Below, in pieces: positions 7,238 to 49,157 of a DNA stretch of 64,000 nucleotides; position 1 is the stretch's first letter, and every line of letters begins with the position of its first letter. A program made the position numbers and the translations under genes. The notes under the pieces were generated by a model. That model was given only the letters and a program-made list of their open reading frames with translations, ran no database searches and was not told the origin of the DNA. Origin of the DNA: an uncultured Dehalococcoidia bacterium (lineage in GTDB: Bacteria; Chloroflexota; Dehalococcoidia; Lucifugimonadales; GCA-2712585); the NCBI GenBank assembly GCA_964418665.1, contig CAYQLZ010000008.1, positions 29,924-93,923 of the forward strand, written 5' to 3'.

Positions 7238-7852
7238 GTGAATATGAGCGGAAAAATTCCGGCTCCACAGCCGGTCGTTCGCCTCATCACCGAGCTTCAC
7301 CGCCTCCCCGGCGTCGGCCCCAAAAGCGCCCAGAGGCTCGCTTACTTCATCATCCGCCAGTCGGAGGAGGAAGCTCAGGAGCTTGCCGAAGCCATCATCG
7401 GCGTCAAGGAGCGCATCATCTTCTGCTCCGTGTGCCAGAACCTCACCGAAATCGACCCCTGCGACCTATGCAGCGGCCCCCAAAGGGACAGGTCCCAGGT
7501 CTGCGTCGTGGAAGAGCCTCTCGATGTCCTCGCCCTGGAACGCGCCGGCTTCTACAAGGGCCTCTACCACATCCTCCACGGCGTCATCTCCCCCATGAAT
7601 GGCGTCGGCCCCGAAGACATCCGCATTCGCGAACTGCTGCCCCGCCTCCGGGACGGCTCCGTCAAGGAGGTCATCATCGGCATCAACCCCACCCTGGAGG
7701 GCGACGCCACGGCCATGTATCTCCACGGCCTCATCCGCCCCCTTGGCATCAAGGTCTCAAACCTGGCCAGGGGCCTCCCCGTGGGCGGACACCTGGAGTA
7801 TGCCGACGAAATCACTCTCAGTCGCGCCTTCCAGGGTCGGCAGGAGTTGTAA
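7238..7852 (+). CDS. recR: recombination protein RecR
   Basis: HhH (GPKSAQRLAYF), C4 zinc finger (CSVCQNLTEIDPCDLC) and a Toprim-like core. The exact start (7238 or 7244) is uncertain. Confidence 0.92.
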   Translation: MNMSGKIPAPQPVVRLITELHRLPGVGPKSAQRLAYFIIRQSEEEAQELAEAIIGVKERIIFCSVCQNLTEIDPCDLCSGPQRDRSQVCVVEEPLDVLALERAGFYKGLYHILHGVISPMNGVGPEDIRIRELLPRLRDGSVKEVIIGINPTLEGDATAMYLHGLIRPLGIKVSNLARGLPVGGHLEYADEITLSRAFQGRQEL

Positions 7853-11701: not shown

Positions 11702-11767
11702 GGAGTGCCTCCTCTGGTGTATTCGGGCCAATGCTATGACCGGCACGGATTCTTGTCAAACCGTCCA

Positions 11768-12120
11768 CGCATTCCTGTTCCTGCGCAGGCAGGAACCCAC
11801 CCTCAACCCACGTCCCACCCTCCGCAATGGCTGCTCCCTCCCCCTCCCTGACCCCCGTAGGGGCGGTTCGTGAACCGCCCTCCCCCTCACCTCAACCATC
11901 CCGGTAGGGGCAGGTTTCAAACCTGCCCTCCCCCACACGTTATTCCAAACAAATCGAAGAATCTCGCCCCCTGTATGGAGTATGATACAGATAACCTCAG
12001 CCGAAGAGATTACACACAAAGCCCCCAACCAGGGAGAACCCCTCTTGCCTCTTCCCCCTTCATGGGGGAAGATTGAGCCTGTCCCGAGCTTGTCGAAGGG
12101 ATGGGGGTGATCCGGGTGGC
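11768..12120. repeat. mosaic cluster of hairpin repeats (families F, A, A, B)
   Basis: TTCCTGCgcagGCAGGAA (11774-11797). GTAGGGGCGGTTCGTGAACCGCCC (11857-11885). GTAGGGGCAGGTTTCAAACCTGCCC (11903-11933). CTTCCCCCttcatGGGGGAAGattgagcctgtcccgagcttgtcgaagggatgggggtgat (12050-12118). Confidence 0.85.
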
Positions 12121-20641: not shown

Positions 20642-22078
20642 TCACATCCCCATCTCCCGCAGCCGCGCCACTAGGTACTCCTGCGGCCTATCCCCCTTCA
20701 GCGAATTGCACGCCCCGCACAGAAGCTGAAGGTTGTCCAGGTGGTCCGTACCACCCCTGCTCTGCGGCACAATATGGTCGATGGTGAAGTTGCGGAATGG
20801 GAACATCACCCTGCAACCCGCGCACAGCCCTTCCTGCTTGCCGAACAACTCGTGTTTCCTCTTGCGATAAGGAATGGGAACGTCAATATCCGTCCGCCTG
20901 GGTATGTCCGTCCGTGACGTCACGTAGCCCGCATGAAACAGGCTCCCCATCGACTGGCGTAGCCGGTCGTTCACCTGCCTGATGGCGTTGGGCGAAATGT
21001 CGATACCCACCCACTGACGCTCCAGCCTGTCGGCGGCGACGCACGTGGTAGCGCAGCCGCAGAAGGGGTCAAGCACCATGTCCCCTTCGTTCGACGAAGC
21101 CTTGATGATCCGCTCCATCAAGGCCAACGGCTTCTGCGTGGGATATCCCGTCCGCTCACTTCCAGCAGCAATCGGTATGTCGTTCCACGTATCGCTAACG
21201 GGAATGCCTGGTTGTTCGTCGAGATACCGTTTGAACCGTGGGACGCCCTTCCCACCGCGAGGAACTACAATCAAGCCCTTCCGGTCCGCTTCTTCCATCC
21301 GTTCCCTTGTCCATCTCCAAACCCTTGTCACACCCTTGAACTCATACGTCAAATTCGGCCTGTCGGGATTTGGATTAAGCAGACTGGTCAACTGATACCT
21401 GCGCCCTGTCTCTTCTTCAATCTGCCGATATTGCTCATGCGCACGGGGATTCTCTACAAATATCGAGTTCCAAGTTGTCTTCCCATCACTCCCGTAAGCA
21501 AGAATCACATCATGATTGGAAGCAAAGCGGGTAAAGGCCAAGCCTTTGGGGTGGGAACGCCTCCATATGACCTCATTCCGAAAATTTCTTGCGCCAAATA
21601 TGCTATCCATCAATAGCTTATGATAATGACTGGCCGTTGGGTCGCAGTGCAGGTAGATTGACCCTGTAGGCTTCAACACTCGCTGCATCTCCAGCAACCG
21701 AACTGCCATCATGCAGAGATACGATTGCGTACTCTTGCCGTGGGTAGTTCTTGCCGTCTCAATCACTCTGTACATGGCGGGATGCACATCGGCAACCAGG
21801 CCCATCCATGCTACGTCCAGGTCCGACAGCGTCCACGTGTCCTTGAAAGCGGCGCCCGCAGCCTTGCTCCCGATAGGCGCAGCGTAGTTGCGGTTGGAGT
21901 TGAAAGGTGGGTCCAGGTAGATGAGATCGGCGCAGTCGCTGTTCATCCCCCGCAGCACATCCAGATTGTCCCCAGTCCACAACGTCCTGCTGGCAAAATT
22001 CGGTTCACCCACGGCCTCAACCTCTATCGTGGTCTTGCCAACACTTGTGTCATCGCCCCCAATGGACGAGCAACGCAA
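20642..22078 (-). CDS. DNA methyltransferase (N6-A/N4-C, beta-class order) fused to a C-terminal HNH nuclease domain
   Basis: Motif IV LIYLDPPFNS is near the N-terminus and motif I MVLDPFCGCATTCVAA near residue 340. The C-terminal ~70 aa read CAGC...FTIDHIVPQSRGGTDHLDNLQLLCGACNSLKGDR (HNH). The start codon is uncertain. Confidence 0.85.
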   Translation of the reverse strand: MRCSSIGGDDTSVGKTTIEVEAVGEPNFASRTLWTGDNLDVLRGMNSDCADLIYLDPPFNSNRNYAAPIGSKAAGAAFKDTWTLSDLDVAWMGLVADVHPAMYRVIETARTTHGKSTQSYLCMMAVRLLEMQRVLKPTGSIYLHCDPTASHYHKLLMDSIFGARNFRNEVIWRRSHPKGLAFTRFASNHDVILAYGSDGKTTWNSIFVENPRAHEQYRQIEEETGRRYQLTSLLNPNPDRPNLTYEFKGVTRVWRWTRERMEEADRKGLIVVPRGGKGVPRFKRYLDEQPGIPVSDTWNDIPIAAGSERTGYPTQKPLALMERIIKASSNEGDMVLDPFCGCATTCVAADRLERQWVGIDISPNAIRQVNDRLRQSMGSLFHAGYVTSRTDIPRRTDIDVPIPYRKRKHELFGKQEGLCAGCRVMFPFRNFTIDHIVPQSRGGTDHLDNLQLLCGACNSLKGDRPQEYLVARLREMGM

Positions 22079-24677: not shown

Positions 24678-24703
24678 TGTTGCACCATTTAGGAGGAACG
24701 CCC

Positions 24704-26017
24704 ATGTTTCCCCGGAACGTCTTTCCCACCACCACCGAGGTCAACGAAGCCGGCCATCTCGTCATCGGCGGCTGCGATACCGTAGACCTGGCCTCCCGGT
24801 TCGGCACCCCACTCTACATCTTCGACGAGGCCACCCTCCGTGGACGCTGCAGAGGCTTCGTCCAGGAGTTCACCAAGCGCTACCCCAACACCCTCGTCGC
24901 CTACGCCAGTAAGGCATACGTCAACCCCGCCGTGGCCCGCATCTTCGCCGAGGAGGGCCTCGGGCTGGATGTCGTCTCCGGCGGAGAATTGGCCGTCGCC
25001 CAGGCCGTCGACTTCCCCAGGGAGAAGGTCTACTTCCACGGCAGCAACAAGACCGCCGCCGAGCTCAAGCAGGCCGTGGAGTGGAACATTGGCCGCATCG
25101 TCATCGATAGCTTCCACGAGCTCGCCCTCCTTGAAGAGGTGGCCGCCGCCGCGGGCAAGTCCCAGGAAGTCCTCCTCCGAGTCTCCCCCAGCATCGACCC
25201 CCACACCCACGAAAAAACCACCACCGGCGTCCTCGACAGCAAGTTCGGCTTTGCCATCGAGACCGGTCACGCCGCCGAGGCTGTCCGGCAGGCCGTCGCC
25301 GCCCCCCACCTGGACCTCAAGGGTCTCCACTTCCACCTCGGCTCCCCCATCTTCGAGCTCCAGCCCTACCGCGACGGCGTAGAAGTAGTCCTCGAATTCG
25401 CCGCCAGTATGCGCGAAGAAGGTCTGAAACTCGAGGAATTCAGCCCTGGCGGCGGTTTCGCCATCGCCTACAAGGGAGACCAGAACCCGCCCACCGACGC
25501 TGACTATGCGGACGCAATCATCGGCACCATGACCGCCGAGTGCGACCGGCTCGGCCTCGAACTTCCCCTCCTCACCATCGAACCCGGACGTTCCGTCGCC
25601 GGTCCCGCTGGCGTCGCCCTCTACCGCGTCGGCGCCGTCAAGGAGATCCCCGGCGTCCGCCGCTACGTCTCCGTCGACGGTGGTATGGGCGACAACATCC
25701 GCCCCGCCCTCTACGACGCTGCCTACGAAGCTGTCGTGGCCAACCGCGTCAACGACAGGGGCGAGCAGGTGGCGACCATCGCGGGCAAGTATTGTGAGTC
25801 CGGGGATGTCTTGGTGAAGGACGTTCTCCTCCCGGCCATCGATGGCAGCGGTAAGGACCTCATCGCCATCCCCGCCTCCGGCGCCTACTGCATTCCCATG
25901 GCCAGCAACTACAACCTGAATCCCAGGCCCCCCATCGTCCTCGTCAACGAAGGTCACGCTCGCCTCATCCGCCGCCGCGAGACCTTCCAGGACCAGATGC
26001 TCCTGGACGTTGCCTAA
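24704..26017 (+). CDS. lysA: diaminopimelate decarboxylase
   Basis: Orn/DAP/Arg decarboxylase fold: YASKAY (PLP Lys), SPGGGF, EPGRS, YCESGD. ATG at 24704 with AGGAGG upstream. Confidence 0.9.
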   Translation: MFPRNVFPTTTEVNEAGHLVIGGCDTVDLASRFGTPLYIFDEATLRGRCRGFVQEFTKRYPNTLVAYASKAYVNPAVARIFAEEGLGLDVVSGGELAVAQAVDFPREKVYFHGSNKTAAELKQAVEWNIGRIVIDSFHELALLEEVAAAAGKSQEVLLRVSPSIDPHTHEKTTTGVLDSKFGFAIETGHAAEAVRQAVAAPHLDLKGLHFHLGSPIFELQPYRDGVEVVLEFAASMREEGLKLEEFSPGGGFAIAYKGDQNPPTDADYADAIIGTMTAECDRLGLELPLLTIEPGRSVAGPAGVALYRVGAVKEIPGVRRYVSVDGGMGDNIRPALYDAAYEAVVANRVNDRGEQVATIAGKYCESGDVLVKDVLLPAIDGSGKDLIAIPASGAYCIPMASNYNLNPRPPIVLVNEGHARLIRRRETFQDQMLLDVA

Positions 26018-26035
26018 CCACATCGTCGACAATGG

Positions 26036-26156
26036 CGTAACGCCGGTGCGCGAACCGCCCTCCCTTTCCACAATTACCGCGGTAGGGGCAGGTTTCAAAC
26101 CTGCCCTCCCCTTCTACATGTCATTCCGAGCGCGGCGAAGCGGAGTCGAGGAATCT
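26036..26156. repeat. hairpin-repeat cluster (families A', A, D)
   Basis: gtaacgccggtgcgcgaaccgccc (26036-26064). GTAGGGGCAGGTTTCAAACCTGCCC (26082-26111). gtcattccgagcgcggcgaagcggagtcgaggaatc (26119-26156). Confidence 0.85.
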
Positions 26157-37253: not shown

Positions 37254-38951
37254 TCAGCTGCGGCCAAACTGTCGCTCCAGGTTCTGTGAACTCAGATGTA
37301 GCATCGTCGGACGCCCGTGCGGGCACGAATGCGGGTTCTCCACCTTCTCCAGCAGCCTGATTATCTCCCGCATCTCCTCCAGGTCCAGGCTCATCCCCGC
37401 TCGCACCGAGCTGTGGCAGGCGATGGACGCCGCCAGGGCCTCCCGGGTCCCCCCCAGGGAAGCCCCGTCCCTCTTTATCATCTCCAGCACCTCCAACAAG
37501 GCCTCCGCCGGGTCGCCGCGCCTACAGACCGCCGGCACCGCCCTCAGCACGTAGGAATCTTCCCCGAAGGTGTCCAGGTCAAAGCCGTAGGCCCTCATCG
37601 CCTCGGCATCGTCTCTCACCAACTCCTGGTGTTCCGGCGAAAGCTCGATTGGGACAGGCTCCAGCAAGGCCTGTACCGACGGGCTTCCCTGCTTCATCTC
37701 GGCAACGATTTTCTCGTACAGCACCCGCTCGTGGGCCGCGTGCTGGTCCAACAGGAATATCCCGTTCGGCCCTTCCGCCACAATGTACGTATTCGACGCT
37801 TGCCCCAGCACCCGCAGCGCAGGAGATTGCACCTCCTGCGTCTTCACGCCTGCCGGAGGCGGCGTAGCCGATGGCCGCGACGCTAGCGGCGAAGCCACGA
37901 ATGAAGGCTGGTATGCTTGCACGCTGTCCGCAGGCGCTATGTGAATCTGTGGCACCGGCGCCGACGCCACAAGCACTGCTCGGACCGCTCTCTGCAACGA
38001 GGCGAAGACCTGCGCCTCCTTTCGAAACCGCACCTCCGCCTTCGTCGGATGCACATTTACGTCCACGTCCTCGTAGGGCAAGCTGATGTTGACTGCGGAC
38101 ACCGGATGCCGCCCCTGGGGCAGCAACCCGTGATAGGACTCCTCCAGAGCCACGTTCAGCATCCGGCTCATCACCCAACGTCTGTTGATGAAGAATGTGA
38201 TGTGACGCCGGTTGGAGCGGTGCAGCGAAGGTGGCCCCACGAAGCCCTTCACGGCGATCTCACCCGTAGGGTCCTCCCAGTCCACCGAAAGCGCCTCCTT
38301 GGCCACCTCCGGGCCGTAGACTGCGGCGAGAGCGTCTTCAGGGCGTCCGCTGCCCGAGAAGTTGACCGCCTCCCGCCCCTCTATCGTCAGGCGGAATGCC
38401 ACTCCCGGGAAGGCAAGTATCAGCCGGTAGACCAGCGCCCGAATCCGACCGGCCTCGGCGGCGGTGGACCTCAGAAACTTCCGGCGGGCCGGCACGTTCT
38501 CGAACAACCCGGTCACTGTGATCATGGTCCCGGGCGCACACCCCACCGGCCCCTGCCGCTCCGTGCGTCCCCACTTCAAATCCACCTCCCATCCCGTGGG
38601 CGAAGACTCCTGTCGACTGACGAGCTTCACCTCCGCCACCGAAGCGATGCTGGGCAGGGCTTCGCCCCTGAAACCCAGCGTTCCGATATTGTCCAGCCCC
38701 GAAACGTCCGCCAGCTTGCTTGTCGCGTGCCTCTGGAATGCCAGCGGAATCTCCTCCGGCTCCATGCCGGATCCGTTGTCCACCACGCGGATGAGTTCAA
38801 CTCCACCGCCCTTCACGTCCACACTCACCCGCGTTGCCCCCGCGTCCAGGGAGTTCTCGATCAGCTCCTTCACCACGGATACAGGCCGCTCCACCACCTC
38901 CCCTGCGGCGATCTTGGCAGCCAGCTGCTCTGAAAGTAGCCTTATTGCCAT
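37254..38951 (-). CDS. mutL: DNA mismatch repair protein MutL
   Basis: GHKL ATPase motifs VVKELIENSLDAGA and DNGSGM. 565 aa. Confidence 0.93.
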   Translation of the reverse strand: MAIRLLSEQLAAKIAAGEVVERPVSVVKELIENSLDAGATRVSVDVKGGGVELIRVVDNGSGMEPEEIPLAFQRHATSKLADVSGLDNIGTLGFRGEALPSIASVAEVKLVSRQESSPTGWEVDLKWGRTERQGPVGCAPGTMITVTGLFENVPARRKFLRSTAAEAGRIRALVYRLILAFPGVAFRLTIEGREAVNFSGSGRPEDALAAVYGPEVAKEALSVDWEDPTGEIAVKGFVGPPSLHRSNRRHITFFINRRWVMSRMLNVALEESYHGLLPQGRHPVSAVNISLPYEDVDVNVHPTKAEVRFRKEAQVFASLQRAVRAVLVASAPVPQIHIAPADSVQAYQPSFVASPLASRPSATPPPAGVKTQEVQSPALRVLGQASNTYIVAEGPNGIFLLDQHAAHERVLYEKIVAEMKQGSPSVQALLEPVPIELSPEHQELVRDDAEAMRAYGFDLDTFGEDSYVLRAVPAVCRRGDPAEALLEVLEMIKRDGASLGGTREALAASIACHSSVRAGMSLDLEEMREIIRLLEKVENPHSCPHGRPTMLHLSSQNLERQFGRS

Positions 38952-39009
38952 AACGGCGGTATTTTCTCATCCCCGCGGTTGGGCCACTCCTTCATTGCCA
39001 GAGGCCCAT

Positions 39010-39453
39010 TCATGCGCTCACCAGGGGCCGCAGATCTCCCCTGGCGCGAAAATGGGGGTCGCTGGACTGCCCACTCTCGGCAAACGCCTCTATCGAGGCC
39101 AGTACCCTCGACATCGCTCCGTCATCGTCGCCCTGCTTGTAGTATGGCCGCACCCAGAACCCGCCGAAGGCCGATACCAGCTGCGGGTCGTCGTCAACCA
39201 CAAAGTCCGGCGCGAAAGGCACCTGCAGTTCCTCCAGCCGCTCCTGGTAGTCATAGAGTGGCTTCTGATACAGACCGGAAACCAGCTCTTCCAACCCGTG
39301 CCTGCGAACCGTCTCCCGCCTGATACCCATGCCCGACCAGACATAGACCCGGTGGCCCGATTCATTCAGCGTGGTCATCGTCTCCAGGACGCCGGGGCGA
39401 AGGGAATTGTCCATCCCCAGGATGGTCTGGTCTACGTCGAAGAAGATGTTCAT
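39010..39453 (-). CDS. HAD-like hydrolase (small, single-domain)
   Basis: N-terminal FFDVDQT (DxDxT) and FVVDDDP. The start overlaps the stop of the upstream ArsC-like gene (ATGA). Confidence 0.6.
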   Translation of the reverse strand: MNIFFDVDQTILGMDNSLRPGVLETMTTLNESGHRVYVWSGMGIRRETVRRHGLEELVSGLYQKPLYDYQERLEELQVPFAPDFVVDDDPQLVSAFGGFWVRPYYKQGDDDGAMSRVLASIEAFAESGQSSDPHFRARGDLRPLVSA

Positions 39454-39821
39454 AGACCTTCGTGCTGTGCCGATGAGATGACACTTTCGATGGCCTTCTT
39501 CCCGCCTCCCACAACCAGCTTGTCGCCCACCCGGAACATGGGACGCCTGATAAGCCGCGGTTCCTCGGCCATGAGCCGGACCAGGTCCTGGGGTTCAAGC
39601 GAATCCTTGTCCACGTCTAGCTTGCGGAAGCTCGGGCTTCGCCACGAAAACACCTCGGAAGGCGGCGCCAGCGTCAGAAGCTCCTCGATTTCAGCCTTGC
39701 TGAGCGTGTCCTTGAAGAAGTCTCTCTCCTCGAATTCCAGGCCCTGCTGCGAGAGCAACTCTCTCGCCTTGCGACAGGAACTTCAACGGGCCCACCAGTA
39801 TAGGGTTATTGCCTTTGCCAT
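39450..39821 (-). CDS. ArsC/Spx-family thioredoxin-fold protein with in-frame TGA (candidate selenocysteine, U-S-S-C motif)
   Basis: ATG at 39821 preceded by AAAGGAG. It reads MAKAITLYWWAR-TGA(39785-39783)-SSCRKARELLSQQGLEFEERDFF...LIRRPMF. The TGA aligns with the first Cys of the family CxxC motif. The ORF track sees only 39450-39758. Confidence 0.7.
39743..39778 (-). other. SECIS-like stem-loop downstream of the in-frame TGA
   Basis: The mRNA reads CCUG-ucgcaag-GCGAGAG-AGUUG-CUCUCGC-ag-CAGG. The 7-bp perfect upper stem starts 15 nt after UGA. Confidence 0.5.
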
Positions 39822-39865
39822 GTTTTCTCCTTTAGGAATTGATTGTGCTGTCCGAGTTGGATTGT

Positions 39866-42499
39866 CTACCCCGCCTCCCTGGCCATCGACTGCAACTCAT
39901 ACAGCTTGTTGATTGCCTCCAGGGGTGTCATGTTTGTCACGTCAAGTTTGAGCAGCTCCTCCACCAGCGGTGGGGTGAGGGAGAATAGCGGAATCTGCTG
40001 CTGTTTTTGTAATGGCGGCCCACCGCCGTTGATAGCCTTGGCCTGCGGCAGCGATTCAAGCGCCTCCAGAATCTCCCAGGCCCGGTGGACCACGGTTTGG
40101 GGCAACCCCGCAAGCTGCGCCACGTGCACACCGTAGCTCCTGTCTGCGCCGCCGGGAACTATCCGGTGCAGAAACACCAGCTGCCCGCCGCTTTCGCTCA
40201 CGGCGACGGTGTGGTTCTGCACCCTTGGAAGAGTCTCAGCCAGCTGGGTAAGCTCGTGATAGTGGGTGGCAAACAGGGTGCGGCACCCCATCTTGGGATC
40301 GTTGTGAATGTGCTCCGCGACCGCCCTTGCGATGGACAGGCCGTCGTAAGTGCTCGTTCCTCTGCCTATCTCGTCCAGAATCACCAGGGAGCGTTGGGTG
40401 GCCTGGTTGAGAATTGCAGCAGTCTCCACCATCTCCACCATGAATGTCGATTGACCGGCCGCTAGGTCGTCCTGCAGTCCCACCCTGGTGAAAATACGAT
40501 CCGCAAGCCCAATGGTGGCCGAATCCGCGGGCACGAAGCTGCCGATCTGCGCCATCAGCGTTATCAGGGCGGCCTGACGGATATATGTCGACTTGCCGGA
40601 CATGTTCGGGCCTGTGATGAGGAGAAGCTGTGTATCCTTCGAGGATAGCTGCAGGTCGTTGGGCACGAACGCCCCGGCAGGCAGGATCCTCTCCGCCATT
40701 GGATGCCGTCCCCCCCTGACGTCCAGGACCGGTTCTTCCACCAGTTCAGGCTTCACGTAACCATGGCTGTCCGCCGCCTCCGCGAATGAGGCCAGCACGT
40801 CAGTCAGGGCGATTCCGTCAGCCAGTTCCAGTATCCCTCTCGCATCCTGCCCCACCTGTGCGCAAATCCGGGAGTAAAGGTCCTGCTCCAACCGCTGGAT
40901 CCGCTCCTGTGCGTCCAGAATGCGAGCCTCGTACCCCTTCAACTCTGGAATGACGAAGCGTTCGCCGTTGGTTAGGGTCTGACGTCGCTCATAGCTGCTG
41001 GGCACCTGGTCAAGATTGGCCTTTCGGACCTCTATGTAGTATCCGAAGACCCGGTTGTATCCCACCTTCAGGGTGCGGATGCCCGTGGATTCCTTCTCGC
41101 GCCGCTCTAGACTGGCAATGAACTGCCGTGCCTCGCGCACCGAAGATCGCAGTTCGTCCAACTCGTCGGAAAAGCCTTCCTTCAGCACCTCGCCGTCTCC
41201 GGGACTGCCCGTAGCGCTTTCCTTCAGAGAACTCTCCAGCAGCTCTTCCAGGGCGTCGAATGAACGCACCCGCTTCCTTAGCCATGCCGCTGCTCCGTCC
41301 CCGTCCAAATGTGGCGAAATGGCTGAAGACGCCCGTAGACTTTCTTTCAGGGCCAGCAGGTCCCGTGGCGGTGCCGCTCCCAGCCGCACGCGGCTCATTA
41401 TCCGCTCGAGGTCGGATATCCGCGATAGCAGGGAGCGGACTTCCTGCCGCCGCAGCAAATTCGAGTGAAAGTAACTGGTCCCCTCCAACCGTCGGTTGAG
41501 GTTGTCCATGTTGAGCAGCGGCTGCCCAATCCAACGTCGAAGAAGCCTTGCTCCCATGGCCGTCCGGGTGAAATCCAGGGTCCCGAGGAGAGAATGCCCT
41601 CCCTCTCCCCAGCGCCCCCCGTCGAAGAGTTCCAGGTTGCGCCGGCTCTGTGGGTCTAGCGTCATATACTCGGAGACGGAGTAAGTCTTCAGGTCGGTCA
41701 CCTGGCTCAGAATCTGAGGCTGAGTTTCGCCCAGGTAACCCAGAATGGCACCAGCGCTACCCACGGCTAGAGGCAGATTGTCACAGCCGTACGCCTCCAG
41801 TGTCAGCGCTCCAAAGTGGTCCAGCAACGCTTGACGTCCTCCCGAGGGCTCGAACTCCTTGGACGGCAGCGGAACAGAGACGTCTACGTTCAGCTCGGTG
41901 AAGTCTTTGTCGGCTTTGGGTACTAGCAGTTCGGCGGGCGAAAGACGGTTCACCTCTGCTGGAAGGTGACTCAGAGGCAGCTGCGTTACCGCAAACTCCC
42001 CCGTGGTGATGTCAATATAGGCAAGACCCGCTTCAGGTCCCTCTACCAGCAGTGCCGCCAGATAGTTGTTGCTCTGCTGGTCGAGCATGGAAGGCTCTAC
42101 AACTGTTCCCGGCGTGACCACCCGCACAACGTTCCTGTCTACCAGACCCCTGGACGCGGATGGATCGCTCAACTGCTCGCAGATGGCAACCCTATGTCCC
42201 GCTTCTATCAACCGCGCAAGGTACGACTCCACCGAGTGCGCCGGAATTCCGGCCATTGGCACTCTGACGCCCTTCCCCATGCTCCTGGAGGTGAGAACAA
42301 TGTCCAGTGCCTTGGATGCCAGCTTGGCGTCTTCATCGAAGGTCTCATAGAAGTCGCCCAGGCGAAAGAGAAGGATGGCGTTGGGGTAACGCTGTTTGAT
42401 GCTGAGGTACTGGCGGCGGATGGGAGTCAAAGGTGTATTCCTGTTTGTACTGGCATTGTACCCGAAAGGGAAGTGCGTGGAAACTGTAGGTTCTTTCAC
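39866..42499 (-). CDS. mutS: DNA mismatch repair protein MutS
   Basis: 877 aa. Walker A is GPNMSGKSTYIRQ, and there is an N-terminal mismatch-binding domain (LFRLGDFYETF). GTG start. Confidence 0.95.
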   Translation of the reverse strand: MKEPTVSTHFPFGYNASTNRNTPLTPIRRQYLSIKQRYPNAILLFRLGDFYETFDEDAKLASKALDIVLTSRSMGKGVRVPMAGIPAHSVESYLARLIEAGHRVAICEQLSDPSASRGLVDRNVVRVVTPGTVVEPSMLDQQSNNYLAALLVEGPEAGLAYIDITTGEFAVTQLPLSHLPAEVNRLSPAELLVPKADKDFTELNVDVSVPLPSKEFEPSGGRQALLDHFGALTLEAYGCDNLPLAVGSAGAILGYLGETQPQILSQVTDLKTYSVSEYMTLDPQSRRNLELFDGGRWGEGGHSLLGTLDFTRTAMGARLLRRWIGQPLLNMDNLNRRLEGTSYFHSNLLRRQEVRSLLSRISDLERIMSRVRLGAAPPRDLLALKESLRASSAISPHLDGDGAAAWLRKRVRSFDALEELLESSLKESATGSPGDGEVLKEGFSDELDELRSSVREARQFIASLERREKESTGIRTLKVGYNRVFGYYIEVRKANLDQVPSSYERRQTLTNGERFVIPELKGYEARILDAQERIQRLEQDLYSRICAQVGQDARGILELADGIALTDVLASFAEAADSHGYVKPELVEEPVLDVRGGRHPMAERILPAGAFVPNDLQLSSKDTQLLLITGPNMSGKSTYIRQAALITLMAQIGSFVPADSATIGLADRIFTRVGLQDDLAAGQSTFMVEMVETAAILNQATQRSLVILDEIGRGTSTYDGLSIARAVAEHIHNDPKMGCRTLFATHYHELTQLAETLPRVQNHTVAVSESGGQLVFLHRIVPGGADRSYGVHVAQLAGLPQTVVHRAWEILEALESLPQAKAINGGGPPLQKQQQIPLFSLTPPLVEELLKLDVTNMTPLEAINKLYELQSMAREAG

Positions 42500-44087: not shown

Positions 44088-46898
44088 CTACGATTCCACC
44101 TTCACAAGCCGGGCGGCAGCGACGTTCAATCCCGCAATCTGAGACATCGGGTCCGGTGATTGGCTGGCTTCCAATTCGACCATTAGCTGCCCGAATAGCT
44201 GGGTTGATGAAACAACTCCTCGTTGCATCCCCTCCCTGAAGGCCACTCTCCCCTGTAGACTTGTTCCGTTGGACTGAATTTCCACCAGATCTCCTTCTCG
44301 GAGTCCCATCACCTGACCATCATCCCGATGCAGCTCGATTATCTCTTCACGCTCTATCCTGTTGGAAAGGCCTTTCAAGACCTTCATCTTCCTTTCGGAT
44401 TGTAGTAGGACGCGACCGGGAGTGAACAGGAGGGGGAAAGCTGCGTCCTCAGCCAACTCAGCCTTGCGGAATTCGGGTATGGGGAGCCGTGGCTTGCCAT
44501 CTCCAAATCCGTCGGCGAATAGAATCTCCACTCCAGGGCTTTCGGCCGTGGGGCAGGGCCACTGGATGCCGTGATATTCCTTATCGGAGTAGAGCACCTG
44601 GGTTGGTAGCGGGTTGCCCACGTCCGGACGGAATACCAGCCGTCCCTCCTTCTCTAACCTGGCATGACTAACCCCACCGTAAATGAGTGAAACGCGGGCG
44701 ATTTCGTCCATGACCGCGGAGGTATCGGGGTATTCAAAGCCTCTGTGTCCCATTCTCTTGGCAAGCTGGCAAATGGCCCACGACTCCGGCTTGGCGTCGG
44801 TGTTCTTGGGCGAAATGGTGGGCCTGACGGTCTGAATCCTGCGCTCCAGGTTGGTATATGTACCCGCCTTCTCGGCAAAGGTGCTGCGGGGCAGAACCAC
44901 GTCCGCTAACTGGGCAGCGTCACCCTGGAAACAGTCTACAACTACCAGGAAGTCCAATGCGTTAAGGGCGCCTAATGTTTGGCTGCTTGAATTTGAGATG
45001 TCCCCGACTAGGAATAGGGCCTGGACTCTTCCCTCGCTTAGGACGGCATTCCGGCTCAGCCCTTCCGACTGAACAATCCTGGCTGACCATTCCTCCTCTA
45101 CCCGTTGGCGCGCTTGGGCGTCGTCCAGGGATGCAAGACCGGGCAGATGATTAGGAACGCAGCCCACGTCCCAGGCCCCCTGGCTGTTCGCCCCCTGCTG
45201 GAGCGGGTATATGCCGGAGGCCGACTTGCCGATGCTGCCGGTCAGCAGCGACAGACCGGCGAGTGCATACACGCAGTCCTTGTGCAGTTCTTCGGGTACG
45301 TTGTCCATACCGTACACAATAGATGAGGGATCAGCCGGGCCGTACAGCCGGACGGCGGCGTCGATCTGGTCATGGGAGATGCCTGTCTGTGCCGAAATGT
45401 CCTCCATTTCCAATTGAGACATCGCCTCCCGCAGGTCGTCGAGGCCGGAGCAGTTCTCGTAGAGCCACTCGCGCCTCTCCAACCCCTGGTGCAGCAATGA
45501 CTTGACCAGCCCGTTCAGAAGCAGTAGCTCGGTGCCGGGCTTCGGGCGGAGCCACAAATCCGCGTAACGGGTTAGTTCGACTTCGCGGGGGTCGACGATG
45601 ACAAGTTTCGCGCCCTCCTTGACGGCCCGCTTGATAGGCACCGCCAGAACGTTGTGCTCTTCGGTAACATTTGCGTTGAAGACCAGGATGCAGTCCGCCT
45701 TCTCCAGGTCCCAGATGGGATTGGTCGCCGCGCCAACGCCCAAGACCTCTTGCAGGGCCTTCACGGCCTCCGGCTGGGTGTTTGTGGCATAGTCCACGTT
45801 ATTGCTGTTCATCACAACGCGAGTAAATTTCTGCGCGAGGTAGTGCTCCTCGTTTGTGCTGTCCGGGGCCGAAAGCATGGCGAAGGAATCACCTAGGTAC
45901 TGGTCCAGCCGGTCCGCGACGTAATTCAGGGCTTCTTCCCAGCTTGCCTTCTCCAGAGTCCCATTGCGTCTGATGAGGGGCGTCTTCAGCCGTTCCTTGT
46001 GGTTCACGAAATCGAGGCCGAATTTGCCTTTGAAGCAGCCCTGACCCCGATTGGCGGGAGAGCTAATCTCCGGCACGGAGCGGACCACTTTGCCGAACCG
46101 GTTCACTTCCAGGTTCAGCTGGCACCCCACCGGACAGTGGGGACAGATGGTGCGCTCTACCTGCTGGGCCTTCTCCCATTTGTGGTCGCTTTCCACCAGG
46201 GCGCCCACCGGGCAAACGTCAAGGCAGGCGCCGCAAAACTCGCAGCCGGATTCCAGCAAGGAGGTGCCATTTGAAGTTCCCACCAGGGCCTGTCCGGCAC
46301 GCTCCGTGAAGGTGATGGCGTTGTCGCCACGCACCTCTTCACACACACGCACACAGCGCCCGCAGACGATGCAGAGATTGTAGTCCCGGTCATAGAACGG
46401 GTCGCCCGTTTCCACGGGCAGATCACGGTACTTGTACTCCAGCGGCGATTCCATCTCCATGCCCAGATAACGCACGGTATCTTTGAGCTCGCACCGCTCG
46501 TTCTTGGGGCAGGTTACGCAGCGGTCGTTCACGGAAACGTGGCGAAGACAAACATCCTGGGGGCCGCAAAGGTCTACCCGGTGACAGGTGAGGCAGCCGT
46601 GGGGGTGGTCCGCTATGAGCAGCTCCATCACGTCTCTGCGTAGTTCGTGCACCTGTCTGCTGGAATTCCGGATCTTCATTCCGTCTGCAACGGGAAGAGT
46701 GCACGAAGCCGGAAGGCCCCGCCCGTTCTCCACCTCCACCACGCACATTCGGCAGGCGGCAAAGGGCTTCATGCCCGGGTGATAGCAGAGATACGGGATA
46801 TAGATGCCCGCCTCGATGGCAGCTTCCAGCACCGTTTGATCGCGGCGTGCCTTGACCTCTACTCCGTCTATTGTGATGGTAATTCGGTCGTCAGCCAT
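44088..46898 (-). CDS. NuoG/FdsA-like Fe-S + molybdopterin-family oxidoreductase subunit
   Basis: 936 aa with an N-terminal 2Fe-2S ferredoxin domain (CRMCVVEV), His-ligated and 4Fe-4S cluster motifs, and molybdopterin-oxidoreductase plus C-terminal MopB-barrel-like domains. No in-frame TGA. I could not find the FDH catalytic Cys/Sec-His. Confidence 0.75.
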   Translation of the reverse strand: MADDRITITIDGVEVKARRDQTVLEAAIEAGIYIPYLCYHPGMKPFAACRMCVVEVENGRGLPASCTLPVADGMKIRNSSRQVHELRRDVMELLIADHPHGCLTCHRVDLCGPQDVCLRHVSVNDRCVTCPKNERCELKDTVRYLGMEMESPLEYKYRDLPVETGDPFYDRDYNLCIVCGRCVRVCEEVRGDNAITFTERAGQALVGTSNGTSLLESGCEFCGACLDVCPVGALVESDHKWEKAQQVERTICPHCPVGCQLNLEVNRFGKVVRSVPEISSPANRGQGCFKGKFGLDFVNHKERLKTPLIRRNGTLEKASWEEALNYVADRLDQYLGDSFAMLSAPDSTNEEHYLAQKFTRVVMNSNNVDYATNTQPEAVKALQEVLGVGAATNPIWDLEKADCILVFNANVTEEHNVLAVPIKRAVKEGAKLVIVDPREVELTRYADLWLRPKPGTELLLLNGLVKSLLHQGLERREWLYENCSGLDDLREAMSQLEMEDISAQTGISHDQIDAAVRLYGPADPSSIVYGMDNVPEELHKDCVYALAGLSLLTGSIGKSASGIYPLQQGANSQGAWDVGCVPNHLPGLASLDDAQARQRVEEEWSARIVQSEGLSRNAVLSEGRVQALFLVGDISNSSSQTLGALNALDFLVVVDCFQGDAAQLADVVLPRSTFAEKAGTYTNLERRIQTVRPTISPKNTDAKPESWAICQLAKRMGHRGFEYPDTSAVMDEIARVSLIYGGVSHARLEKEGRLVFRPDVGNPLPTQVLYSDKEYHGIQWPCPTAESPGVEILFADGFGDGKPRLPIPEFRKAELAEDAAFPLLFTPGRVLLQSERKMKVLKGLSNRIEREEIIELHRDDGQVMGLREGDLVEIQSNGTSLQGRVAFREGMQRGVVSSTQLFGQLMVELEASQSPDPMSQIAGLNVAAARLVKVES

Positions 46899-46903
46899 TC
46901 AGG

Positions 46904-48616
46904 CTACCTCCGTACCCGGGTTGGGGCATGCCAGAGTCCTGGACAGGTGCCCGTCGGGCATTCCTTGTCGTTCATGTGCTGTTCAAATTCTTCCCGGAAG
47001 TAGCGCACCGCCGAAGATACGGGGTTAAAGCCCAGCTGGCCGTGGCCACAAAGGGAACCGGCCTGCATACTGCGTCCCACACGGCCCATGAGCGCCATGT
47101 CTTCAGATGTGCTATCCATCCGGCATATGCGCTCCAGCACCTCCAGCAGATGGGTCATGCCAGTCCGGCAGGGGAAGCACTTGCCGCAAGACTCGTACTG
47201 GCAGAATGCGATGAGGGCGCGCGTCAAGTCCACTACGCAGGCGTCTTCGCTGGCTGCAATCAGACCGCCCGACCCCAGTATCGCCCCCGCCTTGGACATG
47301 GCGTCGAAGTCCAATGCAATGTCTAGCTCCACGGCGCTTAGAACGCCCCCTAGTGGTCCGCCAGTCTGGAGAAGCTTCAGAGACTTGCCGTTGGGTACGC
47401 CGCCGCCAATCTGGTCCACCACCTGCCGAAGAGTCATGCCCATGGGCACCTCGGCCATTCCGGTGTAGGCAAGGTCGCCGGATAGGCAGAGAATGGCGGT
47501 GCCCGTGCTGCGGTCCTGCCCGATTCCCGCAAACCACTGTCCGCCGTTCAGCACAATCTGGGGCACGTATGCCAGGGTTTTCACATTGTTGATATTACTG
47601 GGTTTGCCAAACAGGCCGATCTGGGCCGGGAAGGGAGGACGGTAGCGAGGCATGGCCCTCTTGCCTTCGATGGATTCCATCAACGCCGTCTCTTCGCCCG
47701 CCACGTAGGAGTCGCCCGTCAGAGAAACTTCAATGTCGAAGCAGTAGTTGGAGCCCAGGATGTTTCGCCCCAGAATCCCCAATTGACGCGCCTGTTCAAT
47801 TGCCCGCCAGGTGCGGTCAATGGGCCCGTCGTGCCCATGACGAATGAACACATATCCCATGGTCGCGCCGGTGGCATAACCCGCAAGAATCATCCCTTCT
47901 ATGAGGCTGTGCGGATCGCTTTCCAGAATCCCCTTGTCGTTGAAGGCGCCCGGGTCGCCTTCCTCGCAGTTGACCAGGATGTACTTCACCGGGGCGTTGG
48001 AGCCGGCAAGGAAGTTCCATTTGGTCCCCGTTGGAAATGCCGCCCCGCCCCTTCCCCGTAGTCCCGAATCGCTGACCTCCTGCCGCACCTCGTCGGGCGT
48101 CATTTCAGTGAGGGCTTTGTGCAGGGCAGCGTAGCCGTCATTCGCCACATATTGGTGAATGTCCATTGGGTCAACCTGGCCGGCGTTGCGTAGGGCGATC
48201 CGGCGCTGGGGTTTCATCATTGGATGGTCCCAGAAAGAGGGGATGTCCCCGTTCAGCTTGTTTCCCACGGCTCCCAGGGCCGCTTCGACTAGAGGTTCTC
48301 CATCCACAAGGTGCGTGTCAACTATGCGGGCTGCCAATTCGGGAGTCACGTTGCCGTACACTACGCGCGACCCGTCGGGCATCGATACGTCCACCAGCGG
48401 TTCCGCAAAGCAGGGCCCGAGGCAGCCCACTTCGCTGACCATGGCGGAGACGTGACGCTGATCCATCCGCTCAACGAGAGAGGCTATGACTGCGTCTGCT
48501 CCGGCGGCCTTGCCGCACAAGGCAGTGCCCACTCTTATCCAGGGGCGAGTTCCCTGGGTCAGAACGCGCCATCGTTCCTGGCCCTGGGACTTGATTTCTT
48601 CGAAGCTAGGAGGCAC
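46904..48616 (-). CDS. NuoF-like NADH-binding flavoprotein subunit with N-terminal thioredoxin-like extension
   Basis: GRGGAAFPTGTKW (FMN/NADH) and the C-terminal CGKCFPCRTG cluster. GTG at 48616 preceded by GGAGGG is preferred over the ORF-track start at 48664. Confidence 0.85.
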   Translation of the reverse strand: MPPSFEEIKSQGQERWRVLTQGTRPWIRVGTALCGKAAGADAVIASLVERMDQRHVSAMVSEVGCLGPCFAEPLVDVSMPDGSRVVYGNVTPELAARIVDTHLVDGEPLVEAALGAVGNKLNGDIPSFWDHPMMKPQRRIALRNAGQVDPMDIHQYVANDGYAALHKALTEMTPDEVRQEVSDSGLRGRGGAAFPTGTKWNFLAGSNAPVKYILVNCEEGDPGAFNDKGILESDPHSLIEGMILAGYATGATMGYVFIRHGHDGPIDRTWRAIEQARQLGILGRNILGSNYCFDIEVSLTGDSYVAGEETALMESIEGKRAMPRYRPPFPAQIGLFGKPSNINNVKTLAYVPQIVLNGGQWFAGIGQDRSTGTAILCLSGDLAYTGMAEVPMGMTLRQVVDQIGGGVPNGKSLKLLQTGGPLGGVLSAVELDIALDFDAMSKAGAILGSGGLIAASEDACVVDLTRALIAFCQYESCGKCFPCRTGMTHLLEVLERICRMDSTSEDMALMGRVGRSMQAGSLCGHGQLGFNPVSSAVRYFREEFEQHMNDKECPTGTCPGLWHAPTRVRR

Positions 48617-49157
48617 TTTCGCCCTCCGACGGGCGCCCGTTACTGATCTTTTCGAGGGCGTCACGCGCCCTTTCGGGCGACATTCTACCCATCAGGTGAT
48701 GGTCTATGCTGATGACGGGCCCGTTTGCGCACGCACCCAGGCAGGTATTGAATCTCAGGCTGACATTGCCGTCTTCGGTAGCGCCTTCTTCCTCGATGCC
48801 CAGTGACTCCAGGACCTGTCTAATGACAGGCATGACGCCCTTCACGTGACAGGTAGGGCCCCAGCACACCTCTACACGGTGCCGGCCGGGTGGCTCAAAC
48901 AGAAAGTTGGTGTAGAAGGAGGCCACGCCCCAAACGTCGTTGATCGTTGATCCCGTCGCCCGGGCGACTTCCTCCGCCGCCTCGGGGGGAATGTATCCCA
49001 ACTCGTCCTCCACCGCAAGGAGGCATGATAGTACAGTCACGGTTTCCGGCTTCTGGTCTCGGATGGCCAGAGCGGCGCGCTTACGCAGGGCTTCGGCGTC
49101 TGATGTCACAGGGTCTCCGGGATGATGGATTTGCAGACTATTAGTGGTGTCACGCAA
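48606..49157 (-). CDS. NuoE-like 2Fe-2S thioredoxin-fold subunit
   Basis: VLSCLLAVEDELGYIPPEA...EVCWGPTCHVKG...NTCLGACANGPV is the typical 24-kDa subunit Cys pattern. The start is uncertain (49157 TTG or 49109 GTG). Confidence 0.8.
   Translation of the reverse strand: MRDTTNSLQIHHPGDPVTSDAEALRKRAALAIRDQKPETVTVLSCLLAVEDELGYIPPEAAEEVARATGSTINDVWGVASFYTNFLFEPPGRHRVEVCWGPTCHVKGVMPVIRQVLESLGIEEEGATEDGNVSLRFNTCLGACANGPVISIDHHLMGRMSPERARDALEKISNGRPSEGESAS

Follow-up and report, generated by a model that had tools for sequence, protein, structure and literature searches.

A UGA-Interrupted Gene between mutS and mutL

We analyzed a 64,000-nt stretch of DNA (the window), whose minus strand carries, between mutS and mutL, a reading frame interrupted by an in-frame TGA. 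The features of this interval are as follows:

39866..42499, minus: mutS, with Pfam MutS domains I-V, directly upstream (44-nt gap from its stop to the ATG of the next gene)
39827..39833, minus: Shine-Dalgarno-like AAAGGAG, 5 nt 5' of the ATG, read from the sequence
39821-39819, minus: start ATG, read from the sequence
39450..39821, minus: full coding sequence of the candidate selenoprotein, from translation; 123 sense codons, stop TGA at 39452-39450
39783..39785, minus: in-frame UGA, predicted to be read as Sec; invariant in 78 orthologues, with Cys at this position in the homologues P0046 and L009, in Spx (C10), and in ArsC (C12)
39768..39782, minus: 15-nt spacer between UGA and hairpin, encoding S-S-C-R-K
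39749..39767, minus: SECIS-like hairpin GCGAGAG-AGUUG-CUCUCGC, within the coding sequence, encoding A-R-E-L-L-S(-Q), with covariation among orthologues
39010..39453, minus: HAD-like ORF of 147 aa, with an N-terminal DxDxT (HAD-type) motif
37254..38951, minus: mutL, downstream, with Pfam MutL_C, DNA_mis_repair, and HATPase_c_3

The ORF tool returned only 39450..39758 (minus strand), a frame of 102 aa that starts at an internal TTG, just as an earlier note on this DNA had remarked. The same note had claimed that an in-frame ATG preceded by AAAGGAG lies upstream at 39821, and that the TGA at 39785-39783 occupies the first Cys position of a CxxC motif; the former was borne out by the sequence and its translation, and the latter by alignment, in which the Cys of homologues, Spx C10, and ArsC C12 fell on the TGA. 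Conceptual translation from the upstream ATG gave MAKAITLYWWAR, then the TGA at 39785-39783, then SSCRKARELLSQQGLEFEERDFF..., which places the candidate Sec at codon 13 in the motif U13-S-S-C16. In the closest relatives, GGAG-type or purine-rich codons precede the ATG as well (translations ..KGEN-M and ..GGI-M).

Conservation of the UGA Codon and Its Flanking Frame

The TGA was retained at exactly codon 13 in approximately 95 species-level genomes, mainly of Dehalococcoidia and also of Deltaproteobacteria, Binatia, and Bacillota, and in these genomes the frame encoded the strand x-T-L-Y-W-W-x-R 5' of the TGA and the motif x-x-C-[RK]-[KR] 3' of it. Among 78 distinct orthologues from Dehalococcoidia and Deltaproteobacteria, the codon was invariably TGA and never TAA or TAG, and the flanking codons varied synonymously, mainly at the third position; 5' of the TGA, third-position entropy exceeded first- and second-position entropy, which is a coding signature. 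In one scan, all of the best 80 genome loci had TGA in a single alignment column, inside U-x-x-C-[RK]-[KR] (80/80); 9 loci of an earlier scan and 13 further loci of a scan started from a Cys form had it there as well. Bacillota relatives also showed U-x-x-S or U-x-x-A. The Cys-containing orthologues that the earlier note had suggested looking for do carry Cys opposite the TGA, namely P0046 (CSTC) and L009 (CTTC).

Truncation of the Family in Public Gene Calls

Mis-annotation as a truncated ORF, which had been anticipated for the window gene, turned out to apply to 115 of 117 database homologues. These were N-terminally truncated calls with 50-85% coverage and inconsistent starts, which fell at differing points just past the TGA (MLSQQ.., MKAELSQ.., MRASLLQ.., VRAWLLQ.., and MSCRK..). 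The orthologues thus did not share an internal start codon, and the strand upstream of the TGA was conserved in the approximately 95 genomes. The single seemingly full-length call, P0031, had 'W' at the site; its DNA there reads TGA and the entry fails to translate under code 11, and therefore this 'W' is a gene-calling artefact. Because the calls are truncated, selenoproteome counts and functional predictions omit the family unless dedicated tools are used. The chief value of the present analysis is accordingly a practical one: what is very likely a widespread selenoprotein family has been systematically mis-annotated, as truncated products without the active site, in Dehalococcoidia (including marine SAR202), several Deltaproteobacteria, Binatia, and Bacillota lineages.

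A SECIS-Like Hairpin at a Fixed Distance from the UGA

The perfect 7-bp stem GCGAGAG/CUCUCGC that had been described 15 nt past the TGA was located at 39767-39749. This 15-nt spacing was identical in 82 of 82 distinct sequences, which formed a gap-free stack, and the spacing, the position of the hairpin, and its loop were also the same in a more distant subfamily, from Binatia and Deltaproteobacteria. The stem comprised 7 bp; in many orthologues it was lengthened to 8 bp, which left a G-U-N loop of 3 nt. In the upper 7-8 bp helix, 90.4% of cells were paired, compared with 33-68% in slid controls, and five of the eight pairs changed on both sides (53 cells vs 19.4 in shuffles, a value that 0 of 500 shuffles matched). 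These compensatory changes altered the encoded amino acids (Ala/Ser to Val/Leu). The hairpin proposed from the window sequence was therefore conserved in related genomes, with its position kept, five of eight pairs covarying, and the first loop base invariant. In the Cys forms, of which just two were compared, the corresponding segment was weak, at -2.8 and -4.2 kcal/mol, compared with a mean of -10.2 kcal/mol in the 82 Sec forms.

The CCUG/CAGG extension of the stem, which had been noted together with it, occurs in the window sequence, yet it lacks conservation: paired cells made up 56.5%, inside the slid-control range, and the lower stem was thus ruled out as a conserved feature. The fold of the single sequence (66 nt, -25.2 kcal/mol) was not statistically unusual (z = -1.69; 9 of 200 shuffles equaled it), whereas the hairpin covaried at a fixed place across genomes, and the significance of this putative element derives solely from cross-genome comparison. 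No Rfam family matched the hairpin at either the gathering or permissive thresholds.

SelB recognizes the loop G/U of the bacterial SECIS, and in the present family the first loop base (G30) was invariant, with G-U in the window and in most orthologues. As in the bacterial SECIS (E. coli fdhF type; bSECISearch model), the candidate is a stem-loop within the coding sequence that follows the UGA directly and carries a conserved G in its small loop; for bacterial SECIS elements, a conserved G in a small apical loop right after the UGA has been described (PMC1088965). It differs from the fdhF type in that most family members show no evident bulged U, the helix is short (7-8 bp), there is no conserved lower stem, and no Rfam model covers it.

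Decoding of the UGA

Searches for the Sec machinery covered the window and the loci fetched. NCBIfam models gave no match to selA, selB, or selD among the 20 window ORFs of suitable size; no tRNA-Sec was found in the 64-kb window (tRNA scan) or in the 110 loci fetched (ARAGORN), and SelA/SelD motif searches returned nothing in the latter. When homologues of E. coli selA were searched for, the best 120 matches were all enterobacterial, with no Dehalococcoidia SelA among the matches listed. Within the class, selC, selA, selB, and a Sec-type selD are present in Dehalogenimonas (PMC4918011), and Dehalococcoidia MAGs have been listed with 46-49 selenoproteins (PMC13326102). We also screened the window for a second selenoprotein gene: a motif screen around every TGA yielded pure noise in this 60% GC sequence, and a codon-usage screen gave two matches only, both antisense to proB; the latter screen missed the known gene because its upstream arm has just 12 codons.

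Two readings without selenocysteine had to be weighed. The TGA might be a true stop, in which case the 12-codon upstream frame would be a leader or meaningless and a product of approximately 100 aa would be translated from the internal TTG, or else the gene would be a pseudogene. ORF finders and public annotations call the downstream part alone, and TGA terminates other genes in the window, as this reading would have it; however, judging from the P0046 model, the fold is compact, and such a product would lose beta1 and the active-site motif together with roughly half of alpha1; the called starts also differ between orthologues. In addition, the 12 upstream codons are conserved as protein and are followed always by TGA in 78 distinct sequences, a covarying hairpin stands at a fixed distance, and a pseudogene would not persist in this state in approximately 95 species, all of which makes a true stop extremely improbable. 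We find it equally hard to credit that the TGA is decoded as one of the standard amino acids (Trp, Gly, or Cys), whether by reassignment or by hairpin-stimulated near-cognate suppression. The database entry of P0031 with its 'W' would favor such decoding, but that residue is the artefact described above, and TGA is an ordinary stop elsewhere in the window, ending 17 of the 55 ORFs of a crude gene set (including mutL, dnaG, proA, and accC), and is thus not reassigned. Moreover, the position is that of the family's catalytic or redox Cys, a classic site of Sec/Cys exchange, the hairpin bears bacterial SECIS hallmarks (PMC1088965), and Sec use is documented for the class (PMC4918011, PMC13326102).

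The comparative sequence data thus strongly support selenocysteine decoding, and we infer that Sec is inserted at UGA codon 13. The mutS-mutL interval very probably holds a gene for a Sec-containing redox protein, the UGA of which gene finders take for a stop. In full, we are confident that the product of 39821-39450 (minus strand) is a cytoplasmic selenoprotein 123 residues long, that it falls in the ArsC/Spx branch of the thioredoxin-like fold, that its UGA is recoded via the hairpin, and that it belongs to the published 'Arsenate reductase 2 (UxxC)' family. Translation would begin at the ATG at 39821, and the UGA at codon 13 would be recoded to selenocysteine when the 19-nt hairpin, starting 15 nt 3' of the UGA, recruits SelB carrying Sec-tRNA(Sec). 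In the predicted protein, Sec13 and Cys16 would cap the N-terminus of alpha1 right past beta1, comparable to C10-x-x-C13 of Spx and C12-x-x-S15 of ArsC, and would probably alternate between the selenol/thiol and selenenylsulfide states. The protein may act as a small redox enzyme or a redox sensor, and its gene is presumably co-transcribed with mutS, the HAD-like gene, and mutL.

Protein Family and Fold

With U replaced by C, the protein matched Pfam ArsC PF03960 at 58.4 bits (cutoff 24; E 9e-16), from residue 8 to 112 and over profile positions 1-77 of 79, in agreement with the ArsC/Spx fold to which the gene had been assigned at first sight; Glutaredoxin PF00462 was matched as well. Among PDB sequences, Spx matched best (E 4e-18); its C10 aligned with U and its C13 with C16, so that U13-x-x-C16 occupies the position of the Spx-type N-terminal CXXC switch. 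The best NCBIfam model was TIGR01617 (Spx/MgsR family); the window protein, at 74.3 bits, fell just below its cutoff of 75.05, which several orthologues exceeded. The Cys homologue P0046 stood in for the window protein in structural modeling; its AlphaFold model (pLDDT 86; beta1 at residues 4-8, alpha1 at 13-24) had Spx as the best structural match (TM ~0.8). The protein is therefore closest to Spx by sequence and by the predicted fold of the modeled homologue.

Gene Neighborhood

The order of genes around the Sec gene was widely conserved: mutS adjoined it in 53 loci, the HAD-like ORF was conserved beside it in 49, and mutL was conserved in 48. The ATG of the HAD-like ORF overlaps the stop of the selenoprotein gene (ATGA). 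The sole match of this ORF was a weak N-terminal one to an NCBIfam Cof-type HAD model (E 1.9e-4), with no match in Pfam or PDB. A promoter and terminator scan of the mutS-mutL interval on the minus strand returned nothing above chance. In the contexts examined, ars genes (arsR, arsB, and acr3) were never adjacent, the neighbors being mutS, the HAD-like gene, and mutL, or unrelated genes. In other lineages, the neighbors were heterogeneous and gave no common functional hint, bar a Fur-family regulator that lay directly upstream in two Bacillota MAGs.

Possible Functions

Three more specific functions were considered for the selenoprotein. The least improbable on our reckoning, and still quite unlikely, is that of an Spx-type regulator, in which oxidation of U-x-x-C would control binding to the RNA polymerase alpha-CTD and thereby transcription. 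B. subtilis Spx (PDB 1Z3E, 3GFK, 6GHB, and 7F75) is the nearest solved structure by sequence and, for the P0046 model, by fold, and it leads the NCBIfam comparison through TIGR01617; its redox motif lies at the same position (C10-T-S-C13-R-K-A-R vs U-S-S-C-R-K-A-R here), and the family keeps both the RRP motif and an equivalent of R60. At the DNA contacts of Spx (R60, K62, R92, and the RPI motif), 73 of 82 sequences had R/K in the R60 column, and R92 and P93 did not vary, but the K62 column was Pro throughout. The alpha-CTD contacts described for Spx are Gly52, R47, T53, D54, V71, E72, M74, L76, Q77, L79, and Y80 (PMC8501982); most are not conserved here, the G52 column being mostly Pro/Ser (Gly in 7 of 82) and others having changed (R47 to G/T, T53 to P/L, D54 to S/A, V71 to R/K, L76 to D/E, and Y80 to I/V/L), with only the M74/L79-type hydrophobics kept. 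Furthermore, the orthologues end approximately 18-25 residues past RRP and nothing aligns with Spx beyond about residue 110, so that the C-terminal helix (119-131, which contacts sigma-A) and the YjbH/ClpXP (degron) region are absent. Sec replaces Cys10, the host belongs to Chloroflexota rather than Bacillota, and the alpha-CTD partner residue Y263 has been described as characteristic of low-GC Gram-positive bacteria (PMC8501982).

It is highly unlikely that the protein is an arsenate reductase (ArsC) coupled to glutaredoxin, with Cys12 exchanged for Sec. The literature name of the family, 'arsenate reductase 2', and the Pfam ArsC match would suggest it, and in a MAFFT alignment with E. coli ArsC, the C12 column is Sec and R94 is conserved; however, the Arg60/Arg94/Arg107 triad is broken, as R107 is replaced by A/G/T/S, and less certainly at Arg60, which is unaligned (the R60 column reads S/A, with a placement uncertain by about two columns). 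The arsC equivalog model TIGR00014 gave 48 bits against a cutoff of 106, E. coli ArsC was not among the PDB sequence matches at E <= 0.01 and ranked under Spx and YffB in the fold search with the P0046 model, and ars genes were not adjacent in the contexts examined. Very unlikely, too, is a redox switch or enzyme based on selenium and operating alongside DNA mismatch repair, a reading that leans on the mutS/Sec/HAD-like/mutL order across a deep Dehalococcoidia clade and on the stop-start overlap; such a protein might sense oxidative stress, or might act on MutS, MutL, or the HAD-like partner by reducing or activating it. If true, it would represent an Spx-fold protein with Sec outside Bacillota and with a new client. 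The protein resembles Spx more than ArsC but is without the defining functional residues of both; we read it as a probable U-x-x-C redox protein.

Comparison with Published Selenoprotein Families

The 2008 GOS selenoproteome (Zhang and Gladyshev, PLoS Genet) contains 'Arsenate reductase 2 (UxxC, cd03032 ArsC_Spx)' in its Table 2 and Dataset S1 (PMC2398784). In BLASTP, the window protein aligned gap-free with two of its members, JCVI_READ_1318105 (41% identity, E 1e-30) and JCVI_READ_1095390070075 (45% identity, E 2e-29). Like them, it has a U-x-x-C motif in the same place, here U-S-S-C with U first, and the blocks Y-[YT]-W-x-[KR]-U-x-T-C-[RK]-K, ERD[FI]F, RSP[SA].KK, and EEPRLIRRP. Since cd03032 denotes, within ArsC, the Spx subfamily (PMC8755942), the published classification agrees with Spx and TIGR01617 as the best matches found here. 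The window protein thus belongs to this already published family and is not new. The published members are anonymous marine reads, whereas the present gene is a complete one from a Dehalococcoidia-type genome and lies in a defined, putative operon; the published supplement also mixes in a second, distinct group (..GUT[ST]C[TK][KR]AS.. / ..GNLRAPT..).

Two further selenoproteins of the ArsC superfamily are more distant. NF041106, the 'ArsC family (seleno)protein' (ArsC_rel_Se_1), which a 2026 review lists as 'Arsenate reductase-like protein, UxxC' (PMC13188914), shares the superfamily and the UxxC motif, but the window protein scored 33.5 bits against its cutoff of 85. For six relatives in other subfamilies, the result was 27-46 bits or no match, and the window protein and all six scored higher on TIGR01617 than on NF041106. 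Arsenate reductase (ArsC) 1, the UxxS protein of the Sargasso Sea study of 2005 (PMC1088965; TIGR00014 type), likewise carries Sec at the ArsC Cys12 position; it represents another subfamily, with the motif HNPRU..SR.. in the GOS supplement, and the window protein remained well below the TIGR00014 cutoff, as given above.

The biological gain is accordingly small, as the family, its UxxC motif, and the SECIS-type hairpin were all published in 2005-2008. The minor new points are the near-universal truncation of the public calls and the mutS-Sec gene-HAD-like-mutL order, widely conserved in Dehalococcoidia; the embedding of a Sec gene in the putative mutS/mutL operon of many Dehalococcoidia may be noteworthy in itself. 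The same may hold for the near-total dominance of Sec over Cys forms in this subfamily: Sec forms far outnumbered Cys forms in the genome set searched, whereas the broad GOS family comprised 238 Cys and 42 Sec forms (PMC2398784).

A TGA-Interrupted Gene between mutS and mutL

The ORF tool reported only a frame beginning at an internal TTG, as the earlier note had described. Reading the sequence directly, we also found the other elements claimed there, namely an in-frame upstream ATG preceded by AAAGGAG and a TGA followed 15 nt later by a 7-bp hairpin. The gene delimited in this way (39450..39821, minus strand; hereafter the Sec gene, Sec being selenocysteine) is flanked by mutS and mutL, with a HAD-like ORF before mutL:

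39450..39758, minus strand: ORF-tool call for the Sec gene, 102 aa, TTG start, the sole ORF listed there
39821-39819, minus strand: ATG start of the Sec gene, same frame as the 102-aa ORF
39833-39827, minus strand: AAAGGAG, 5 nt upstream of the ATG
39785-39783, minus strand: in-frame TGA, the single internal stop in the translation from the ATG
39767-39749, minus strand: hairpin GCGAGAG-AGUUG-CUCUCGC, starting 15 nt past the TGA
39866-42499, minus strand: mutS, stop codon 44 nt upstream of the Sec gene ATG
39010-39453, minus strand: HAD-like gene, 147-aa ORF with a DxDxT motif, its ATG overlapping the Sec gene stop (ATGA)
37254-38951, minus strand: mutL, same strand as the other three genes

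Translation from the ATG gives MAKAITLYWWAR before the TGA and SSCRKARELLSQQGLEFEERDFF...HEGL after it. With the TGA set to Cys, the protein matched the Pfam families ArsC (PF03960, E 9e-16), as the earlier note had anticipated, and Glutaredoxin. TGA is not reassigned in the source genome, because it is the normal stop for 17 of 55 ORFs in a crude gene set of the window, including mutL, dnaG, proA, and accC.

Conservation of the TGA across Genomes

A protein search returned 117 homologues (P0001-P0117), 115 of which cover just 50-85% of the query because their gene calls begin just after the TGA; the suspected mis-annotation as a shortened ORF is thus widespread. The alternative that orthologues genuinely start at an internal codon was not borne out: the called starts disagree (MLSQQ.., MKAELSQ.., MRASLLQ.., VRAWLLQ.., MSCRK..), and about 95 distinct loci, obtained from three scans of one-genome-per-species contigs, conserve both the strand x-T-L-Y-W-W-x-R before the TGA and x-x-C-[RK]-[KR] after it. 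All of these loci carry TGA at the same column except one from Acidobacteriota (L009), which reads CTTC. Only two database homologues extend to the N-terminus. One, P0046, reads CSTC at the equivalent site; the other, P0031, has a Trp there, the underlying DNA is TGA, and the entry fails to translate under code 11, so that the Trp apparently reflects translation under genetic code 4. A Cys therefore aligns with the TGA, as had been expected of orthologues, in P0046, in L009, and at Cys10 of Spx. Among 78 distinct sequences, the eight codons ahead of the TGA varied chiefly at third positions, with Tyr(-5) and Trp(-3) near-invariant; the stop was TGA in 78/78, and the Cys codon three positions on switched between TGC and TGT.

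The majority of carriers are Dehalococcoidia, SAR202 included; the others are Deltaproteobacteria, Syntrophales, Thermodesulfobacteriota, Binatia, and three Bacillota MAGs. The Bacillota proteins read U-T-T-S or U-T-T-A, without the resolving Cys, and have the hairpin at the same place. A second Sec subfamily has the motif KF[YI]YKAT-U-TTC-RKARSF...NELYRARNMKQKPP, of which the Acidobacteriota gene (L009, 6001-6246) appears to be the Cys counterpart. These relatives are located as follows:

L006, 2727-3056; L008 and L010, around 6001-6340: Bacillota relatives
L102-L109, around 3001-3300: second Sec subfamily, in Binatia, Thermodesulfobacteriota, and Deltaproteobacteria

Covariation of the SECIS-Like Hairpin

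By itself, the window hairpin was not exceptional in fold energy (z = -1.69), and the case must therefore rest on cross-genome comparison. The earlier note had asked whether the hairpin is conserved in related genomes, and its position proved to be fixed: 82 distinct sequences stacked without gaps, and the helix started exactly 15 nt past the UGA in 82/82. In an alignment of 69 rows, the 8-pair helix was paired in 90.4% of cells, compared with 33-68% when the partner was slid by 1-3 columns. Changes on both sides occurred in five of the eight pairs and numbered 53 cells against 19.4 ± 3.0 in shuffles, none of 500 shuffles equaling the observed two-sided changes or covariation score. The first base of the loop is G without exception, most often with U next to it. 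Such compensatory changes alter amino acids, for example from GCG..UCG (Ala..Ser) to GUA..UUA (Val..Leu), one swap of several, which argues that RNA structure was selected over peptide sequence. The CCUG/CAGG extension of the lower stem is present in the window as described but is not conserved (56.5% paired).

The distant Sec subfamily of Binatia and Deltaproteobacteria forms a hairpin of different sequence (GCAAGA-AGUU-UCUUGC), likewise 15 nt past the UGA. Whereas the 82 Sec forms averaged -10.2 kcal/mol, the equivalent segment of two Cys forms folded at -2.8 and -4.2 kcal/mol, which is suggestive of a weaker hairpin in Cys forms, two being compared. No Rfam family matched the hairpin, as is expected for short bacterial SECIS elements. 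Taken together, we consider it very likely that, as the earlier note proposed, the TGA encodes Sec in place of the first Cys in the CxxC motif of an ArsC/Spx-fold protein and is served by a SECIS element.

Selenocysteine Machinery

The 64-kb window contains no tRNA genes, and none of its 20 size-suitable ORFs matched SelA, SelB, or SelD; tRNA-Sec and the SelA and SelD motifs were likewise not found in the retrieved loci. A search for homologues of E. coli SelA gave only enterobacterial proteins among the matches listed. The literature supports the Sec trait at the class level: selC, selB, Sec-synthesis genes, and a selD that itself contains Sec are present in Dehalogenimonas alkenigignens (PMC4918011), and BSepDB credits Dehalococcoidia MAGs produced by the same type of assembly project with 46-49 selenoprotein genes (PMC13326102).

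Genomic Context and Other Genes of the Window

mutS is followed by the Sec gene, the HAD-like gene, and mutL in about 48 of 90 loci (L001-L090, a few duplicates among them), an order (37254-42499, minus strand, in the window; L001-L004 and L011-L088) that persists where MutS/MutL identity is as low as roughly 50%. In the other Dehalococcoidia subgroups, and in other phyla, the neighbors are unrelated. A minus-strand promoter and terminator scan inside the cluster gave nothing above chance. We know of no functional link between the embedded Sec gene and mismatch repair. Among the Bacillota, two MAGs (L008 and L010) have a Fur-family regulator gene (PF01475) immediately 5' of the Sec gene and in the same orientation, a weak hint that the Sec protein may act in oxidative or metal stress.

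Several other genes of the window deserve mention. A three-gene cluster (44088-49157, minus strand) resembles formate dehydrogenase and encodes a NuoE-like 2Fe-2S ferredoxin (183 aa), a NuoF-like subunit (586 aa), and a 936-aa molybdopterin oxidoreductase with a NuoG-type N-terminus, whose expected catalytic Sec/Cys region (..NNVDYATNTQPE..) contains neither residue and no in-frame TGA. The 478-aa ORF at 20642-22078 (minus strand) is probably a methylase-HNH fusion, in which residues about 302-376 form a DNA adenine-methyltransferase domain and a C-terminal part (about 406-472) matches the HNH region of IscB and Cas9d models. The RecO match of the 432-aa ORF at 7432-8730 (plus strand) spans residues 148-388 only, and the frame is open for 85 further codons upstream, to a TGA; probably the annotated start is too far upstream or the protein has an N-terminal extension. 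At the thresholds used, two ORFs, 24689-26098 (minus strand, 469 aa) and 10859-11851 (plus strand, 330 aa), matched neither Pfam nor NCBIfam.

Comparison with Known Families

A 2005 study of the Sargasso Sea described ArsC-type selenoproteins (UxxS, COG1393; PMC1088965), and the 2008 table of Global Ocean Sampling (GOS) selenoproteins places "Arsenate reductase 2, cd03032, UxxC" among previously described families and gives it 42 Sec sequences (PMC2398784); cd03032 is the ArsC_Spx subfamily (PMC8755942). Under that heading, GOS Dataset S1 contains JCVI_READ_1318105 (MIYYTWNKUSTCKKTRELLLQ..ERDIF..RSPSVKK..EPRLIRRP) and JCVI_READ_1095390070075 (PMC2398784), with ungapped identities to the window protein of 41% (E 1e-30) and 45% (E 2e-29), respectively, the level of many Dehalococcoidia orthologues. 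The window protein thus joins, as a new member, a selenoprotein family already published in 2008; an explicit link between Spx and selenocysteine was not found in the literature searched. Added here are the systematic mis-annotation of the family, nearly all of whose public gene calls are truncated (P0001-P0117; L111, 295-648), and, as by-products, a clean data set on covariation in its SECIS and the conserved context within a predicted mutS/mutL operon.

The nearest solved structures by sequence were Bacillus subtilis Spx entries (E about 4e-18). The top NCBIfam model, TIGR01617 (Spx/MgsR family), scored 74.3 bits, below its cutoff of 75.05; the arsC equivalog (48 bits, cutoff 106) and NF041106 "ArsC family (seleno)protein" (33.5 bits, cutoff 85) were also below threshold. 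Relatives from other subfamilies showed the same pattern, several exceeding the TIGR01617 cutoff. The Cys homologue P0046, modeled from a 41-sequence alignment as a stand-in for the window protein (pLDDT 86.4), has beta1 at residues 4-8 and alpha1 at 13-24, and the redox residue caps this helix. In a fold search with this model, Spx ranked first (TM about 0.8); YffB and ArsC-related proteins came next, and E. coli ArsC stood lower.

USSCRKAR of the window protein aligns with CTSCRKAR of Spx, U13 falling on Cys10 and C16 on Cys13. Shi et al. 2021 (PMC8501982) list the functional determinants of Spx. Of these, the redox and RRP motifs are retained in the family, and the R60 column is R or K in 73/82 sequences; the Gly52 column is Pro or Ser (Gly in 7/82 sequences), the Lys62 column is an invariant Pro, the majority of alpha C-terminal domain contact residues are changed, and the C-terminal helix (119-131) is lacking. 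From E. coli ArsC, Cys12 (as Sec) and Arg94 are retained, whereas Arg107 is not and Arg60 probably has no aligned equivalent; ars genes were not found beside the Sec gene in any lineage whose neighbors were inspected. That the protein is a canonical arsenate reductase or a canonical Spx regulator is thus improbable. We conclude that it is a predicted U-x-x-C redox protein that contains Sec and is built on an Spx-like scaffold; it would use selenenylsulfide chemistry, judging from the motif position and from thioredoxin-fold CxxC/UxxC proteins. It resembles Spx more than ArsC, yet is without the functional hallmarks of either.
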